The notes beneath the pieces are model-generated. The model had not been told where the DNA came from and searched no databases. It saw nothing but the letters and a program-made list of their open reading frames with translations. The position numbers were made by a program, and so were the translations under genes. From an uncultured Candidatus Saccharibacteria bacterium (lineage in GTDB: Bacteria > Patescibacteriota > Saccharimonadia > Saccharimonadales > UBA10212), in NCBI GenBank assembly GCA_964624785.1, contig CAZUXR010000001.1, positions 213 to 64,212 on the forward strand: a stretch of DNA of 64,000 nucleotides, given 5' to 3'. Positions 6,294-61,892 of the stretch are shown piece by piece; the stretch's first letter is position 1, and every line of letters begins with the position of its first letter.

Positions 6294-8066
6294 CTATGGA
6301 CTCGTTTTTGGCAAAACGTTAAAGCTATTTACCAACATGTGCCCCAGACTGTTAAAAATTGGCTGGGCGGCGGCTGTTCCGGCATATCCGCCAACAGATG
6401 GATCATTAACTCGAACAACTATAACGTACTGCGGCTTATCCCCACCCACAAAACCCATGTATGTTCCGTTATATTTATTAGCAAAATAGCCGCCAGCCGG
6501 ATCGGCAATTTGGGCTGTACCCGTTTTGCCACCCACACTATATATGCTGCTAAATGACGGATTTAAGTGGTGATTGTCTACAACATATTCCATGAGCGAC
6601 TGAACTTGCGTGCTAACAGTCGGCGATACAACGTGCTCATTTAATACTTGCGACTTATTTATAGAGCTGTTACCGGACGAATCAATGGTCTGATCTACTA
6701 ACCTCGGCTTGTAATACTTCCCACCATTCAGTACAGCTGACAGCGCTGCGCCCATTTGCAGTGGCGTAGCGGTCATGGCCTGACCAAAGGATGTATTGGC
6801 GTACGCCAGCTGCAGCGCATAGCCTTTTTGAGCATCGGGAATATAACCACTAGCCTCGTAACCCTGCTCTATGCCGGTTGCCGCGCCCAAATGATAATGA
6901 TTCACCATATAGTCATGCCATTTTTGACGCGCAGCTAGATTCACCTGCCCTGTTTGGCCGCCCATTTGCATTAACATCCAGGTCGCACCGGTATTTATAG
7001 ACAGGTTTAAAATGCTTGCAATATTATGAGTGCCAGCACCGCCGTCCTCCTCGATATTTGTAATAGTGTGGCCGTCTAGATCCCAGCGGCTTGGGTCGTA
7101 GTAACTTGTGTCGGGCTTGATTGCCCCTTGGTCGAGCGCGGCGGCGGCGGTTAAAACCTTCATGATCGAACCTACTTCGAGCGGGCTAGAAACGGCGGCA
7201 TTATTAAATACATTGGCATCTTGTTCTTTGTAGTACTGGGCTGGATCGAACGTAGGCCAGTTGGCCATAGCTTTTACAGCACCGGTGTTAGGATCCATTA
7301 TTAGCGCACTGCCGGATTTTGAACCGGCTTTATCCAGCCCTTGTTTCAAAAGGCTTTCCAATTGTTTTTGCATGGCGAGATCAATGGTTAAAATAACTTT
7401 TTTACCGGGTTTAGGATCTATTTGAATGTTTTCTTTGCTGGCCGCCAGTGGAACTCCAGCCGCATCAGTAATGGCTTTTAGTTTGCCGGGCGTGCCAGAC
7501 AATTGCTTATCCATGGCTTGCTCGAGTCCGTAAGTTCCTTTGCCGTCGTTACTTACAAATCCAAGCAGCTGAGCCGCAAGATTACCCTGCGGGTAGTTGC
7601 GATAGTTTTGCGCTTGAGCGCCAACTCCTGGCAACTTTAAGCTAGTAATTTTGTTTTTTTGATCTTCGCTTAATCGTTTAGCCAGGATGACGTAGCGGCT
7701 TTTAGGGGTTTTCATAAGATCCACATACTGGGATTTATCGCCCCCTGTGATAGTAATTAGTTTTGCCGCACTCTTGCCAGCATCTTTAATAAAAGATGGG
7801 TCGGCATAAAGTGTGTACAGGGTTTGGTTAAGCACAACAGGCACTGTACTGTCGCCGTTTTGGGCTTCTATAGTGCCGCGCGGTGCAACCAGCGAATACT
7901 CTTTTAGCTGATCGCTTAACGCCTGCTGACGGTAATAATCGTGGCGAATAACTTGCAAGTAGAATAACCGGACCACAAACAATGCGAGAATAAATATAAG
8001 ACCAGCGTACCAAATATTAATACGGTACCTGGGAGTAATCGCAAGTTTGCTTTTTACCGGCTGCAT
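6294..8066 (-). CDS. ftsI: class B penicillin-binding protein (FtsI/PBP2-type transpeptidase)
   Basis: N-terminal TM anchor and a PBP dimerisation region. The transpeptidase motifs are GSIMK (SxxK-like), SFG (SxN-like region) and GKTGTA (KTG). Confidence 0.9.
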   Translation of the reverse strand: MQPVKSKLAITPRYRINIWYAGLIFILALFVVRLFYLQVIRHDYYRQQALSDQLKEYSLVAPRGTIEAQNGDSTVPVVLNQTLYTLYADPSFIKDAGKSAAKLITITGGDKSQYVDLMKTPKSRYVILAKRLSEDQKNKITSLKLPGVGAQAQNYRNYPQGNLAAQLLGFVSNDGKGTYGLEQAMDKQLSGTPGKLKAITDAAGVPLAASKENIQIDPKPGKKVILTIDLAMQKQLESLLKQGLDKAGSKSGSALIMDPNTGAVKAMANWPTFDPAQYYKEQDANVFNNAAVSSPLEVGSIMKVLTAAAALDQGAIKPDTSYYDPSRWDLDGHTITNIEEDGGAGTHNIASILNLSINTGATWMLMQMGGQTGQVNLAARQKWHDYMVNHYHLGAATGIEQGYEASGYIPDAQKGYALQLAYANTSFGQAMTATPLQMGAALSAVLNGGKYYKPRLVDQTIDSSGNSSINKSQVLNEHVVSPTVSTQVQSLMEYVVDNHHLNPSFSSIYSVGGKTGTAQIADPAGGYFANKYNGTYMGFVGGDKPQYVIVVRVNDPSVGGYAGTAAAQPIFNSLGHMLVNSFNVLPKTSP

Positions 8067-8075
8067 TTAGATTAG

Positions 8076-8423
8076 TTACTGAGAAACTACGCCGGACGGA
8101 GAAGCAGCAACAAGATTTTTAGCTGGTTGGCTAGAACTAACCCGATCAAGCGACTGCAAACGCGCAGACATTACTTCTAGATCAGCTTTTTGGTCGGTAA
8201 GTTTAGCTTGTTCTTGCTGTAAATTATTAATTGTGTAGCCAAAACTGTTAGTTTTTGTAACTTGGGTCAAATAAAGCAGGCCAATCAGACAGGCCAAAAC
8301 GATTAAAATAATCGCATTGCTAACAGGCCCTAAACTGCGAGCGCGAGCTTTAAACGATACTACATTTTGGTTTCGCCGGACGTATGTGCGCCGGCTCATG
8401 GCTACGGAGCTTGAATATGTCAT
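8076..8423 (-). CDS. ftsL: FtsL/DivIC-like septum formation initiator
   Basis: 115 aa with a single TM followed by a coiled coil (NNLQQEQAKLTDQKADLEVMSARLQSL). It sits between rsmH and ftsI. Confidence 0.6.
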   Translation of the reverse strand: MTYSSSVAMSRRTYVRRNQNVVSFKARARSLGPVSNAIILIVLACLIGLLYLTQVTKTNSFGYTINNLQQEQAKLTDQKADLEVMSARLQSLDRVSSSQPAKNLVAASPSGVVSQ

Positions 8424-8440
8424 ATTTTTGTTTTTCTTGG

Positions 8441-8569
8441 CCCCGCACCTGAAACTGCTTTTAACCTTGCGGTTAATTAATTGCTGTGACGCTTATTAAA
8501 CTTTCTAGATTAATTCGACTTTACTCTATTCTCGATACTAGAGCAGCGTAAGCAGTTTCAGGTGCGGGG
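8441..8569. repeat. 129-nt stem-closed element, copy 1 (20-bp perfect terminal inverted repeat)
   Basis: CCCCGCACCTGAAACTGCTT (8441-8460) pairs perfectly with AAGCAGTTTCAGGTGCGGGG (8550-8569). There is an internal hairpin TTAACC-ttgc-GGTTAA at 8461-8476. The element lies 17 nt upstream of the ftsL start. Confidence 0.85.
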
Positions 8570-8669
8570 GCCCGGTTCCCCAAGCTAGTTAGCGTTCGTG
8601 CACTATTCTAACTTGGACTTTTTGTTGCCGGGATCTATCTTTTACCTCAATTGACATTGAGAGTTATCC

Positions 8670-9587
8670 CTATCCTTTCTTTTTGCTCGTTATTTCTAAC
8701 GAGTGATTTTTTATTTTCGCTGCGGCTCGCAATTTTGCACTGCGGGCACGCGGATTTAAAACTATTTCATCAGTCGAAGCCGTAATTGGCTTCTTGGTAA
8801 GTAAACGCAGGTCAGCATCGTAAGTATCTGCGCCGTGACTTTTTAAAAACTGTTTAACAACTGCGTCCTCCAAACTATGGAAGCTTATTACAACTAGCCG
8901 TCCACCCGGATTTAGCAGTTCCAACCACAGTGGCAAACTTCTTTCCAGCTGCCCCAGCTCGTCGTTAACTGCGATCCGTAGTGCCTGAAAAGTGCGAGTG
9001 GCAGGATGAACCTTACTGTGGCCCGGCCAAACACTTTTGGCGATATCGGCAAGCTGAGTGGTAGTGCGCACTGGGCGGCTGCGAATAATGCGTTTGGCGA
9101 TAGAGCGAGCTTTTGGTTCCTGGCCATAATCTTTTAAGATTTGGGTCAGCTTATCCTCTTTATAGGTATTAACTATGCGGTAGGCATCCAGTTTTTGGCG
9201 CTCGTCCATTCGCATATCCAGCGGCGCTTCATTTTTAAAGCTAAACCCGCGTTCGGTTTTATCTAGATGAAGCGAACTTACACCTAGATCTGCCAGGATC
9301 ATATCAAATTGCTTACCCTCGCCTACCAGCTGTTCGCTAGCAGAAAAGAAGTCCGCATGAATGATTTGAGGTTTGTCGCCGAACTGTTTGGTTAGCTCAT
9401 CAACTGCTGATGCGTCTCGGTCAACTAGAGTTGTTTTGTTTGGACTTTTGGTCCGCTCAATAACTAAGCTAGCGTGGCCGCCGTAACCTGCCGTTAAATC
9501 CAAATATGACTCCCCACTATCGGGAGCCAGATATTCGAGTACTTCGATCGGCATGACTGGTGTGTGTTGTTTTTGTGTTTGTTTCAT
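8670..9587 (-). CDS. rsmH: 16S rRNA (cytosine1402-N4)-methyltransferase
   Basis: HTPVMPIEVLEYL, DLTAGYGGHA and DLGVSSLHLD motifs typical of MraW/RsmH. It follows mraZ. Confidence 0.95.
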   Translation of the reverse strand: MKQTQKQHTPVMPIEVLEYLAPDSGESYLDLTAGYGGHASLVIERTKSPNKTTLVDRDASAVDELTKQFGDKPQIIHADFFSASEQLVGEGKQFDMILADLGVSSLHLDKTERGFSFKNEAPLDMRMDERQKLDAYRIVNTYKEDKLTQILKDYGQEPKARSIAKRIIRSRPVRTTTQLADIAKSVWPGHSKVHPATRTFQALRIAVNDELGQLERSLPLWLELLNPGGRLVVISFHSLEDAVVKQFLKSHGADTYDADLRLLTKKPITASTDEIVLNPRARSAKLRAAAKIKNHSLEITSKKKG

Positions 9588-9712
9588 ATTTTTGTTTTTG
9601 CAAGATCACCTAATCAGCAGCCAGCTTTTTGTTTTAACGGTTGTTTTTGTTTTTGTTGAAGCTCATTAAGTGGTTAATGAGCTAATGTGAAGCGAAGAAG
9701 CGCGATTTTTTG

Positions 9713-9841
9713 CCCCGCACCTGAAACTGCTTTCAACCCTGTGGTTGAAAAGTTGCTCTGATACTTGCATGAAATTTCCTAGAATCGTTAGATTTTAGTT
9801 AATTTCGGTGCGAAGCAACATGAGCAGTTTCAGGTGCGGGG
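9713..9841. repeat. 129-nt stem-closed element, copy 2
   Basis: It has the same termini as copy 1 (CCCCGCACCTGAAACTGCT ... AGCAGTTTCAGGTGCGGGG) and the same length. The internal hairpin is TCAACC-ctgt-GGTTGA at 9733-9748. The element lies 125 nt upstream of the rsmH start. Confidence 0.85.
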
Positions 9842-10040
9842 TCTCTTACTTTTTCGCTTACGTTGTAAAAAGTCTTGTTAAGGGACTTTTTTAGGTGGAG
9901 TTTTGGGAGGTGTTAGTGAGAGAAAAATGTACGAGGGTTTTTAAAGGTGGTTACCCTATTGATCCACCTGCTGACTGCCGAATAGCTAATCTCGATAGTT
10001 CTTGTTTACTTACCAATTTGTTAAAGATCTACCTATCCCG

Positions 10041-10415
10041 CTATAGCGACTCGGCCGATTGCTTGCTCATTAGCCGCCAATATTGGCCAGCCCGAACAGC
10101 AACAACATCGCGTTCTATACCCGCGGTGTCCAGCAAATGCTGCGGCAACTGAATGCGGCCTTGCTTTTGGTCTATTCCGCCATCAGCTTTGCCCATCCTA
10201 AATTGCACGTTCAAATCAGCTGTTCGCTCATCCAGGATTTGTCCTGTAAGCTGCGGCTCGACCTGCAATTCCCACACTGCTTTGGGGTATAGGTGGAGAT
10301 AATTTTTTTTAAAACCTCTGGTTATAACTACTCCGTCTTCAAACTCAATCCTAAGTTCGGTCGGTATGGTCAACCGCCGCTTATCATCGAGTTTCCTTTC
10401 AAAGTAATCTCCCAT
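10041..10415 (-). CDS. mraZ: transcriptional regulator MraZ (tandem SpoVT/AbrB-like domains)
   Basis: Two DxxxR-type motifs (LDDKRRLTIP and IDQKQGRIQLP), 124 aa, first gene of the dcw cluster. Confidence 0.9.
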   Translation of the reverse strand: MGDYFERKLDDKRRLTIPTELRIEFEDGVVITRGFKKNYLHLYPKAVWELQVEPQLTGQILDERTADLNVQFRMGKADGGIDQKQGRIQLPQHLLDTAGIERDVVAVRAGQYWRLMSKQSAESL

Positions 10416-16370: not shown

Positions 16371-16414
16371 CAAATTATCATAAAATCGGCGATCGCCGAT
16401 TTTATGATAATTTG
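16371..16414. repeat. 44-bp perfect palindrome with GCGATCGC core
   Basis: CAAATTATCATAAAATCGGCGATCGCCGATTTTATGATAATTTG is its own reverse complement. It lies in the divergent carA / 16477 promoter region. Confidence 0.9.
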
Positions 16415-17319: not shown

Positions 17320-17360
17320 ATTTTTGCGTTATTAGTTAATTAGTAGTATAATATCGTTAT

Positions 17361-17404
17361 CTTTTGCGGTTCGCCAGATTTGGCAGATCCAAAAGGAGTT
17401 TTTT
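17361..17404 (+). terminator. candidate intrinsic terminator after the 16477 gene
   Basis: Stem CTTTTG (17361-66) / CAAAAG (17390-95) with inner stem GCCA/TGGC, followed by a T6 run at 17399-17404. Confidence 0.4.
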
Positions 17405-17407
17405 AAC

Positions 17408-17710
17408 AAGGCAGGGTTTTTATATGCTCAAGGAACGCTTTTCCGGGTAGTGCTTCTTCTTTTTAGGGAACCAAACCTCAACCGACTGGAGCAAAAAAGC
17501 AATGAGCGATGATGACTACATCACAGAAGAGATCGATGCGATGCTCAGGAACTACGCAGCCTTGACGGGCAGGGTCAGGAGGTTCATCCGACGACTATTC
17601 CGAGCGCGCTAGGCGCTGCGCCTAACGCGCAGCGATACAATCAAAATCTCTCGCCAGGACGGTGCCGCCCCAAAAGCATCGTCCTGGCACAGCCACTAAA
17701 ACCCTGCCTT
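17408..17710. other. high-GC islet 2: 303-bp module closed by a 13-bp inverted repeat
   Basis: AAGGCAGGGTTTT (17408-17420) pairs with AAAACCCTGCCTT (17698-17710). The interior is GC-rich (nt 17581-17640 hand count 37/60) and has a GCCAGGACG...CGTCCTGGC hairpin. Confidence 0.7.
17502..17612 (+). CDS. possible 36-aa micro-ORF (acidic N-terminus, Arg-rich amphipathic C-terminus)
   Basis: MSDDDYITEEIDAMLRNYAALTGRVRRFIRRLFRAR. A GGAG lies 12 nt upstream. It is below the ORF-track cutoff and there is no homology evidence. Confidence 0.25.
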   Translation: MSDDDYITEEIDAMLRNYAALTGRVRRFIRRLFRAR

Positions 17711-17742
17711 AATTTTTTATAACACAACTAATTCACCGCATT

Positions 17743-17897
17743 GGACTTTCGCACTTTTCCATAGCAACAGACCATAGCTGACTGACCAACAAACTGCCTA
17801 TCTTTTCTCGGTGTAGCTATAGCTACTCCTCAAAAACCTAAACAGTTTTCGTCCAAACCAGCTACACCCTGTTATCTACAGAAAAGTGCGAAAGTCC
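17743..17897. repeat. 155-nt stem-closed element in the pyrB leader (17-bp perfect terminal inverted repeat)
   Basis: GGACTTTCGCACTTTTC (17743-17759) pairs with GAAAAGTGCGAAAGTCC (17881-17897). There is an inner stem GGTGTAGCT / AGCTACACC. Confidence 0.8.
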
Positions 17898-17968
17898 TAT
17901 AAAGCCCGCACGCAAACAATTTGAGTTTTACCAGCTAATAATAAATACTGGGACATAGAAAACAGGAG

Positions 17969-35400: not shown

Positions 35401-35985
35401 ATGGCTAAAAACGAAAGTACATCTGCGATTGTTGACGGAGTGTTAAGATTTACAGTGGTCGGTGGTTCAATCGCCGCCGGATTGTTCCTGCCTAACCTTT
35501 TAGTCACGCTGGATAAACCACTTAACAAATACTTTGCCCACCTTGATAAAAACGCTCGCGAAAGAGAAGTTCGAAGAGTGCTTAGCTATATGAAATCGCA
35601 CAAACTATTAACAGAAAATTACGAACACGGCATTGTGCTTACAGAAACGGGCAAAAAGCGCCTAGAACAGGCTGAGTTTGAATCACTTAAAATTAAACCG
35701 CTCAAAGAGTGGGATTATAAATGGCGTATCGTACTATATGATATCCCAGAAAATAAAAAAGTTGACAGACGAATACTGCAATTAAAGTTACAAAAGCTAG
35801 GGTTTAGACAGCTTCAACGCAGCGTACTGATTCACCCCTTCCCTTGTCGAGAAGTTATCGAATCCGTTTCCAACCACTACAAGCTAAGCGTGTATGTCAG
35901 CTATATAGAAGCAACTGGAATCGACAATCAAGCTGCCCTGATATCAAAATTCCAAAAAAGCTTACCAAACACATCCTTCAAATAA
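35401..35985 (+). CDS. membrane-anchored winged-helix / PaaX-like (Cas2-fold) putative regulator
   Basis: N-terminal TM, a wHTH-like segment (VLSYMKSHKLLTENYEHGIVLTETGKKRL), and WDYKWRIVLYDIPENKKVDRRILQLKLQKLGFRQLQRSVLIHPF typical of the PaaX-like middle domain. Confidence 0.5.
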   Translation: MAKNESTSAIVDGVLRFTVVGGSIAAGLFLPNLLVTLDKPLNKYFAHLDKNAREREVRRVLSYMKSHKLLTENYEHGIVLTETGKKRLEQAEFESLKIKPLKEWDYKWRIVLYDIPENKKVDRRILQLKLQKLGFRQLQRSVLIHPFPCREVIESVSNHYKLSVYVSYIEATGIDNQAALISKFQKSLPNTSFK

Positions 35986-36012
35986 AATAACCTATCGCTT
36001 ATTTTATTTGAA
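35982..36012. repeat. right copy of the 31-bp inverted repeat flanking the 35401 gene
   Basis: ATAAAATAACCTATCGCTTATTTTATTTGAA. It overlaps the stop codon of the 35401 gene. Confidence 0.85.
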
Positions 36013-45707: not shown

Positions 45708-45869
45708 TTAGCCTCTGTTTTCTCCTACCCTGTCTCATAATTACTCCTGATATGCTACCACGGAAGTAGCGATGAGCCAATACCTTGAAGCCAAGACTCC
45801 TTGGTTGGTGGCTGAAAGGCCTGAAATTCATAATGCAGAGTTGAGAATGCGAAACTTCCGTCACCAACA

Positions 45870-45907
45870 AATCAAATAAAATAAGCGATCGCTTATTTTA
45901 TTTGATT
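45870..45907. repeat. 38-bp perfect palindrome with GCGATCGC core
   Basis: AATCAAATAAAATAAGCGATCGCTTATTTTATTTGATT lies between the S41 peptidase stop and the pyrG start. Confidence 0.9.
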
Positions 45908-45969
45908 CGTTTAATAGTTCAGGGTTCAGAGTTTTATGTTCTTGAACTTTAGCTTCTATAAACTCTCGG

Positions 45970-61070: not shown

Positions 61071-61892
61071 CTATGGCCTAAGCGTACCGGCAAAAACTTG
61101 CCAAGCAAGAGCCGTTTTAGCAATTAGACTCAAAATAATATACACACGTTCGCCGTAAAGATAGTTCGACCAATGTCCAATCTTTTTGTACTGCAAGTAC
61201 ATATTGACGGCAAAGCTGCTAAATAAGATAAACAAACTAATGTAGATCGCGTACACAAAGCCAGGAACACCGCTTCCGTAGGTGTGAGCACTCCAAGTAT
61301 AGATCGCCAAAACAACCCATGGAGCCACGCCGCTCAGGCAGCCCACGTAGTAATTTGCCCAGTCAACTTTGTCTGAATTCTGGTTGCGCAGTTCCATTAC
61401 TAAGCCGGACAAACTCATGATTGCTACAAGAATAAAGATCATTACCAAACTAGAAAAGTCAAAAATGCCCGAAAGAAGCGCGATCCCCACCATCATCGTG
61501 CTGGCAGAAACAGAATATTCTATCCAGCGAGCGCGGTTAATACCCTTCTTAAGATCAGCTTCATAATGTTTGCGATAGCGGGTAGCCACAATCATGTGAG
61601 CAGCCGCACTCATAAAAAAGAACGCGGCAACGATGTAGGCAAGATTAATATCAAATAAGTGACGGCTGGCACTGGCTAAAACTGGGTGTCCACTGGACGT
61701 AGAAGCGACTTTGTCTAAAGCTAAAAAGTTAGTGGTAATCGGCTGGGAGCCATGGCTTGGATCGCTGATAACAAGCACTAATATACCCTGTAATGCGTGG
61801 GTGGCGGCCGCTATTAGATTGTACTTTCGCAGATTTTTGAATGTAATTTTTCCGGACTTTGGAGCTAAGCTTAATTGTTTAGGGACCCTCAT
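61071..61892 (-). CDS. heliorhodopsin (7-TM retinal protein, inverted-topology family)
   Basis: Collinear by eye with heliorhodopsin 48C12: NRARWIEYSVSASTMMVGIA (counterion Glu), VPGFVYAIYISLFILFSSFAVNMYLQYKKIGHWSNYLYGERVYIILSLIAKTALAWQVFAGTL (Schiff-base Lys in SLIAK), N-terminal THALQ and AAAHMIV His positions. Confidence 0.85.
   Translation of the reverse strand: MRVPKQLSLAPKSGKITFKNLRKYNLIAAATHALQGILVLVISDPSHGSQPITTNFLALDKVASTSSGHPVLASASRHLFDINLAYIVAAFFFMSAAAHMIVATRYRKHYEADLKKGINRARWIEYSVSASTMMVGIALLSGIFDFSSLVMIFILVAIMSLSGLVMELRNQNSDKVDWANYYVGCLSGVAPWVVLAIYTWSAHTYGSGVPGFVYAIYISLFILFSSFAVNMYLQYKKIGHWSNYLYGERVYIILSLIAKTALAWQVFAGTLRP

Follow-up and report, generated by a model that had tools for sequence, protein, structure and literature searches.

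The dcw operon of an uncultured Candidatus Saccharibacteria bacterium raises the question of what two stem-closed sequences of identical length are doing on either side of its rsmH gene: do they act as RNA in the transcript or as protein sites on the DNA, or are they copies of a mobile element? The stretch analysed here (contig CAZUXR010000001.1 of assembly GCA_964624785.1, positions 213 to 64,212 of the forward strand; 64,000 nt in total, hereafter the window) contains element 1 (E1) at 8441-8569, between the stop codon of a small open reading frame (ORF), 19 nt away, and the ATG of an ftsL-like gene, 17 nt away. Element 2 (E2) lies at 9713-9841 in the mraZ-rsmH spacer; the mraZ stop codon precedes it by 199 nt, and the first ATG of rsmH follows after another 125 nt. 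Both measure 129 nt; neither they nor the parts described below are assigned to a strand, and the genes around them lie on the minus strand. E1 and E2 form a pair of palindromic insertions that is real, non-random and lineage-specific. In the reading that we favour, and to which we give about an even chance, both are copies of one non-coding, lineage-specific element that resembles a MITE (a miniature transposable element with inverted repeats), and each copy entered the loop of a pre-existing intercistronic hairpin of the operon or survived only there. As to kind, they most likely represent a new example of an already known sort of small mobile element.

Arms and interiors of the two elements

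Each element is closed by terminal inverted repeats. In E1, the left arm (8441-8460, CCCCGCACCTGAAACTGCTT) spans 20 nt and is 100% complementary to the right arm (8550-8569, AAGCAGTTTCAGGTGCGGGG). The left arm of E2 (9713-9732) has the same sequence, whereas its right arm (9822-9841) carries a G at 9822 instead of the A found in E1, leaving 19 perfect pairs and a 20th that reads T:G on the plus strand and C:A on the gene-sense strand. The 19-mer of the arm, CCCCGCACCTGAAACTGCT, occurs four times in the 64 kb at no more than 3 mismatches, compared with 0.01 expected occurrences, and none of 100 shuffles reached four. Weaker copies of the element were not found elsewhere in the window. E1 and E2 align end to end with 76% identity (E=6e-21), and the similarity stops exactly at the ends of the inverted repeats; although the interiors differ by indels of +2, -1 and -1, both elements come to the same length. 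The sequence of E1 was recovered base for base in an independent Logan assembly of run SRR9179559 (one 1.3-kb contig). An earlier interpretation made from the letters of the window (the sequence-only reading) had described two 129-nt elements with perfect 19-20-bp termini, one of them 17 nt from the ftsL ATG and the other in the rsmH leader; coordinates, complementarity and positions were all confirmed, the ftsL ATG being at 8423.

Directly after the left arm, each copy has an internal hairpin, referred to here as hairpin A: TTAACC-TTGC-GGTTAA in E1 (8461-8476; the loop is GCAA on the sense strand) and TCAACC-CTGT-GGTTGA in E2 (9733-9748), where one pair differs on both sides from its counterpart in E1. 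The sequence-only reading had pointed out the diverged interiors, the retained hairpin and the T:A to C:G double change that preserves pairing, and all three are indeed present. Its interpretation as a whole was supported in part. For its conclusion that structure is under selection, one compensated pair is available: both copies keep hairpin A perfect, and a back-of-envelope estimate gives P~0.01-0.02 for a perfect 6-bp hairpin being kept by drift at the divergence of the interior, which is suggestive only. In a shuffle control of covariation, however, 237 of 500 shuffles did as well, this test having no statistical power with two sequences; moreover, the 19 closing pairs show zero covariation between the copies. 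Outside hairpin A, the folds of the interior are not the same in the two copies, nor on the two strands.

The strongest contrast is that between arms and interiors: 39 of 40 arm positions are identical in E1 and E2, compared with 56 of 91 interior positions (62%; binomial P~1e-7, Fisher 4e-6). As selection on pairing alone would permit compensatory differences, none of which is seen in the 19 pairs, the arm sequence itself, and not merely its pairing, appears to be, or to have been until recently, recognised by something. If E1 and E2 are MITE-like, the arms would serve, or would once have served, as the sites bound by a transposase that acts in trans and is encoded elsewhere in the genome.

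Recognition could also take place on the DNA without any transposition. Four identical 20-bp sites arranged as two inverted pairs, in which sequence rather than pairing is conserved and the arms, by direct reading, keep a centre-to-centre distance of 109 and 110 bp (about 10.5 helical turns), might be the recombination sites of an invertible switch, or else paired operators ~109-110 bp apart that loop the DNA around rsmH. Yet there is no promoter-like site on the gene strand inside the elements, the window encodes no recombinase or invertase, and E1 occurs in one orientation only in the two available assemblies. The relatives discussed below are without such sites, and the homologous interiors fit the duplication of a whole unit and not the origin of independent sites. 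We regard this explanation as highly improbable, and in its specific form of an invertible promoter switch (inverton) it was rejected on the first three of these points. An integron attC site, which has RYYYAAC ... GTTRRRY cores and extrahelical bases, was rejected as well: the ends CCCCGC/GCGGGG form a perfect stem, and on direct reading the internal TTTTAAC/GGTTAAT does not fit these cores.

Insertion sites in the dcw operon

Along the transcript, the order is mraZ, 199 nt, E2, 125 nt, rsmH, 12 nt, small ORF, 19 nt, E1, 17 nt and ftsL; the minus-strand orientation of the genes and the small ORF between rsmH and E1 are two points absent from the sequence-only reading. We compared the dcw regions of eight distant relatives from the Saccharimonadia, whose RsmH proteins are 62-67% identical to that of the window. 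Gene order is the same in all eight, and the element is absent from every one of them, the site of E1 being comparable in eight and that of E2 in five; at this distance, both orthologous sites are thus empty, as expected for a MITE. A nhmmer profile of both copies did not match any relative among the 77 loci fetched.

Without E2, the mraZ-rsmH spacer would measure 331 nt compared with 337 nt in the relative L065, and it is collinear with the spacers of L065 and L077; the bases right after E2, CAAAAAATCGCGCTT, match AATTCGCGCTTT in both. Because of this collinearity, E2 is a clean insertion in a variable stretch between invariant leader blocks.

At the site of E1, all seven relatives that were folded individually (L065, L067, L069, L070, L072, L075 and L077) are predicted to form a GC-rich hairpin of 10-13 bp that is unrelated in sequence (z -3.0 to -6.3), and L074 shows the same hairpin in the fold of its spacer. 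This pre-ftsL hairpin lies between the small ORF stop codon and the A/C-rich ftsL leader, and has no U tract. According to these folds, its structure is kept without sequence conservation, and it may represent a transcript boundary or a stability element. Removal of E1 brings its flanks together as CTTGGG-8 nt-CCCAAG, which may be what is left of the ancestral hairpin.

With the elements in place, CTTGG (8436-8440) pairs with CCAAG (8580-8584) around E1, and AAGCGAA (9690-9696) with TTCGCTT (9853-9859) in an outer helix around E2. Since the flanks pair around both copies, and the relatives have a hairpin at the E1 site, both copies are predicted to sit in the loops of older hairpins. By analogy with insertion sequences, for which REP hairpins are preferred targets (PMC1525189), this location may reflect a target preference. 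It may equally well reflect survivorship, as a palindrome inserted in a loop merely lengthens the hairpin. The idea that twin hairpins are a habit of the whole clade was rejected, because in five relatives the A/C-rich leader is all that one spacer has in common with the other, and hairpin sequence is not shared; the twin arrangement is therefore a peculiarity of this genome.

An independent stem-closed insertion of 230 nt was observed in L067 (4379-4608; also in L068) between ftsL and the gene for a penicillin-binding protein (PBP). It is bounded by a 14-bp perfect inverted repeat (CCAGATGTTTTGTG), has a predicted folding energy of -98 kcal/mol (z -6.7) and no Rfam match. As this example shows, the dcw spacers of the clade seem to collect stem-closed elements.

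By the published definition, MITEs measure 50-800 bp, their inverted repeats no less than 10-15 bp, and the target-site duplication beside them 2-10 bp (PMC11602168). E1 and E2 have two of these three features: they are of suitable size and non-coding, with early stops on the sense strand and ORFs of no more than ~15 codons across them, and their perfect repeats of 20 bp and 19 bp exceed the minimum. What is lacking is the duplication. Among the roles offered by the sequence-only reading, a MITE fits best, given the insertion relative to the eight relatives, a unit that ends at its repeats, and arms so much better conserved than the interior; the absence of a duplication, which that reading had already reported, was confirmed at both copies and speaks against it. 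We conclude that the element works like a MITE, its membership in such a family being unproven. Reading of the flanks ruled out both an IS91-like CTTG/GTTC target and an IS630-like TA target.

Several further observations, together with the absent duplication, weigh against a MITE-like element. No direct repeat of at least 2 bp is present where CTTGG and GCCCGG border E1, or where TTTTG and TCTCTT border E2. A Pfam scan of the ~60 ORFs of the window, which are housekeeping genes, detected no transposase (including Y1 transposases), recombinase, invertase or RNase III (rnc). Only two copies are known, both in one operon and 1272 nt apart; a dispersed family is assumed rather than demonstrated, the copy count covering the 64-kb window. 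Exact searches with the 19-mer arm returned eight single matches in 185,579 GTDB species genomes (in unrelated high-GC or other taxa) and 13 in JGI metagenomes, and the 16-mer core of the arm gave 42 single matches in IMG/VR, with no paired arm in any of these collections. The single matches, having neither a partner arm nor interior similarity, were rejected as chance and not taken for real homologues. The same three scans contained no longer element with the same ends that might be the parent insertion sequence, and distant-mode blastn against plasmid and phage collections gave no match to the element, so that no paired copy was encountered in the public collections searched. A search for strain variants or empty sites by way of exact RsmH, MraZ and FtsL products returned only the Logan contig from the same run, identical at E1, and the relatives are too distant to date the insertion. 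Finally, all consequences at the RNA level, as treated below, are predictions.

Some of these points would suit another history, in which a hairpin unit was copied once between palindromes 1.3 kb apart, e.g. by template switching or gene conversion, and carries no dedicated function. Two known copies close together in one operon, no target-site duplication, no transposase in the window and no copy in public collections are in line with such a local event. It leaves unexplained, however, why the arms are so much more alike than the interiors and why the unit ends exactly at the inverted repeats, and arms of 20 nt are short for repeated gene conversion. We consider this history rather unlikely.

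Predicted RNA folds and known repeat families

On the sense strand, E1 and E2 are predicted to form very stable folds (-55.9 kcal/mol, z -8.9, and -63.1 kcal/mol, z -10.0, respectively), in which each copy would fold on itself, a perfect duplex of 20-22 bp closing an interior of ~90 nt. Both local hairpins persist in the predicted fold of the whole 1451-nt segment, and cross-pairing of E2 with E1 around rsmH, in the manner of rRNA processing stems, was rejected on these grounds. A scan of the gene strand revealed neither promoter-like nor terminator-like sites in or beside the elements. Since no promoter or terminator separates the genes, we infer co-transcription with the operon as the default, both copies being part of an mraZ-rsmH-sORF-ftsL message. 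A role of E1 and E2 as promoters was rejected for want of a gene-strand promoter, and one as intrinsic terminators because the sense-strand tails (CCAAGAAAAAC in E1 and CAAAAAATCGC in E2) have no U tract.

A perfect duplex of 20-22 bp is a classical RNase III substrate. The 20 perfect pairs of E1, extendable to 22 with one bulged C, and the 19 of E2 reach the duplex length of about two helical turns. A role in processing by RNase III is structurally plausible on the basis of the predicted folds, and the idea gains indirect support from E1 sitting exactly at the site where the relatives have their strong hairpin. If E1 is a MITE-like insertion, it would replace or extend this GC-rich hairpin between small ORF and ftsL, and would probably do the same job, be it as transcript boundary, stability barrier or processing site. 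Cleavage in the arms would then be the most likely biochemical consequence, as in the Correia elements of Neisseria, whose inverted repeats are cut by RNase III (PMC10969869, PMC2649163).

Could the pair have been selected as RNA, irrespective of its origin? Rfam yielded nothing at gathering thresholds and, at E<=5, just sub-threshold miRNA-precursor hairpin noise, which bears out the statement of the sequence-only reading that no known RNA family is recognisable. By contrast, its suggestion of a regulatory leader, in the sense of a conserved cis-regulatory RNA family, was not supported: Rfam offered no match, none of the relatives has the element, and between its copies, which are paralogous, a single covarying pair is seen. 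A narrower proposal is a selected RNA module, in which two stems of identical sequence bracket the rsmH-sORF segment and serve as sites of RNase III or of an RNA-binding protein, thereby setting the expression of rsmH versus ftsL and the genes downstream. The shared orientation at positions where relatives have hairpins, the equal length despite real internal indels, the perfect hairpin A with its compensated pair and the very stable predicted folds would all agree with such a module, and one protein reading the arms would explain their identical sequences. The relatives, however, do without the element, which is thus not a conserved solution, and Rfam offers no counterpart. Covariation is lacking in the 19 closing pairs, although the test is powerless with two sequences; the interior folds differ apart from hairpin A, and E2 has C:A as its 20th pair on the sense strand. 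We judge a selected RNA module to be unlikely.

A mobile and a functional origin might also be combined. In this scenario, which appears improbable to us, a mobile palindrome was domesticated to replace the ancestral intercistronic hairpins, and one sequence-specific factor, or pairing between the copies, would excise or stabilise the rsmH-small-ORF segment in an ultra-small episymbiont. Such a dedicated module would explain the identical arms, the identical length and the shared orientation.

Like E1 and E2, the Correia elements (CREE/NEMIS) of Neisseria are non-coding sequences of ~100-150 bp with terminal inverted repeats (20-26 bp), occupy intergenic or intercistronic positions, are co-transcribed with their neighbours (as is presumed for E1 and E2) and have repeats that form a long RNA duplex. 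They duplicate TA on insertion. E1 and E2 differ in their two known copies, and in having no duplication, no promoter-like site and, by reading, no sequence similarity to Correia elements, which occur in hundreds of copies, contain an IHF site and are able to generate promoters at their ends (PMC2649163).

ERIC sequences (intergenic repeat units) of enterobacteria are almost equal in size (127 vs 129 nt) and likewise lie in transcribed intergenic regions, if co-transcription of E1 and E2 is accepted. They are imperfect palindromes over their whole length, whereas E1 and E2 are complementary only at their 20-bp ends; the host phylum is another one, and homology was not detected. ERIC hairpins in RNA can alter mRNA decay (PMC10969869, PMC2759123), but the family numbers from 30 to >700 copies per genome and acts via an RNase E site (PMC10969869).

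REP/BIME and REPIN sequences can be likened to E1 and E2 in being palindromic and intercistronic, and in forming barriers at mRNA 3' ends, a role that is predicted for E1 and E2. In contrast to these, however, the REP units are short GC-rich palindromes present in >100 copies and linked to RAYT Y1 transposases (PMC2817692, PMC3333891). Membership in the REP/REPIN group was rejected: the arm is not self-complementary (direct reading finds no palindrome within it), there is no Y1 transposase in the window, and the known copies are two.

The mraW RNA motif (RF01746 in Rfam), like other cis-regulatory rsmH leaders, resembles E2 as a structured element in the rsmH/mraW leader; E1 and E2 differ from it in belonging to no Rfam family at threshold and in not being conserved in relatives.

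If E1 and E2 are indeed MITE-like, they would belong to a family of small palindromic mobile elements that had not been recorded before in Saccharibacteria, whose genomes are reduced and have little room for repeats; in the literature, a full-text search found no paper joining Saccharibacteria with 'miniature inverted-repeat'. They would also show that elements can survive in compact genomes by way of hairpin loops that tolerate extension, and a long, putatively RNase III-cleavable duplex 17 nt before ftsL might alter how strongly rsmH is expressed relative to the division genes. Of greater value than the twin elements, in the end, may be three features that the dcw operon of the Saccharimonadia has conserved: its small ORF, its obligatory hairpin ahead of ftsL and its structured, covarying leader between mraZ and rsmH.

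Neighbouring genes and other structured sequences

The minus-strand genes around the elements are mraZ (10041-10415; PF02381), rsmH (8670-9587), the small ORF (8589-8657), the ftsL-like gene (8076-8423) and, downstream of the latter, a gene for a PBP transpeptidase (6294-8066); mraY and ftsW also belong to the cluster. The ftsL-like gene has no Pfam match; we assigned it because it precedes the PBP transpeptidase gene. Among 5.8 billion proteins, the closest RsmH other than the protein itself is 67% identical, and the named matches are from Saccharibacteria or Saccharimonadales, the window itself belonging to the Saccharimonadia (TM7).

For rsmH, the gene call in the database begins at 9554. 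The same 16-mer, TCATATTTTTGTTTTT (sense AAAAACAAAAATATGA), is found at 8420-8435 and 9584-9599, where it spans the ftsL start and the first in-frame rsmH ATG, respectively. Its presence at both start codons suggests that rsmH starts at 9587 and not at 9554, and that both genes use A-rich leaders lacking a Shine-Dalgarno sequence.

The small ORF is conserved and would encode a peptide of 22 aa (MSIEVKDRSRQQKVQVRIVHER). ORFs of 19-22 aa with the pattern M[PS]I.V...SR..K[VI].VR[VI]... lie between rsmH and ftsL in nine of nine genomes, namely the window and L065, L067, L069, L070, L072, L074, L075 and L077. In several relatives, an AAGGA-type ribosome-binding site is seen by eye upstream of it. 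As the relatives differ largely by synonymous changes, the ORF would seem to encode a genuine small protein that belongs to the dcw cluster. A split-off C-terminus of RsmH was ruled out, since RsmH itself already ends in the NPRARSAKLR motif.

The mraZ-rsmH spacer, 330-560 nt long (~9590-10040 of the window, minus strand, and especially 9887-10015; 2709-2837 in L065 and equivalent positions elsewhere), contains the invariant blocks AACACCTCCCAAAACTCCACCT and GCTGRCTGCTGATTAGGTGAYCTTG and a hairpin of the form NNNTGG...CCANNN, three pairs of which covary when six genomes are compared. Blocks and hairpin, for which there is no Rfam match, are candidates for a conserved leader RNA or operator of rsmH. 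The same spacer harbours a structured insert of ~90 nt, GAGCAGCCCGAGCAAATG...CATTTGCCCGGCGCGATGAGA...TCTCAT, in L070 (~2540-2625), L075 (~2540-2630) and L077 (~1380-1465). This insert is near-identical in L070 and L077, shows compensatory changes in L075 and has no Rfam match either.

Elsewhere in the window, the gene for an aspartate/ornithine carbamoyltransferase has a non-coding gap of 650 nt (17320-17968) upstream. Within this gap, the two arms of an inverted repeat (17740-17764/17876-17900; 25 nt, 88% complementary) surround 111 nt and an inner palindrome, again without Rfam match. Three AT-rich palindromes, 36-46 nt long and perfect or nearly so, at 16371-16414, 45866-45911 and 35977-36012, are related in sequence (…ATAAAAT…CGA|TCG…ATTTTAT…); they might serve as bidirectional terminators or form another family of repeats. 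A heliorhodopsin gene was identified at 61071-61892 on the minus strand (PF18761, E=1e-88).

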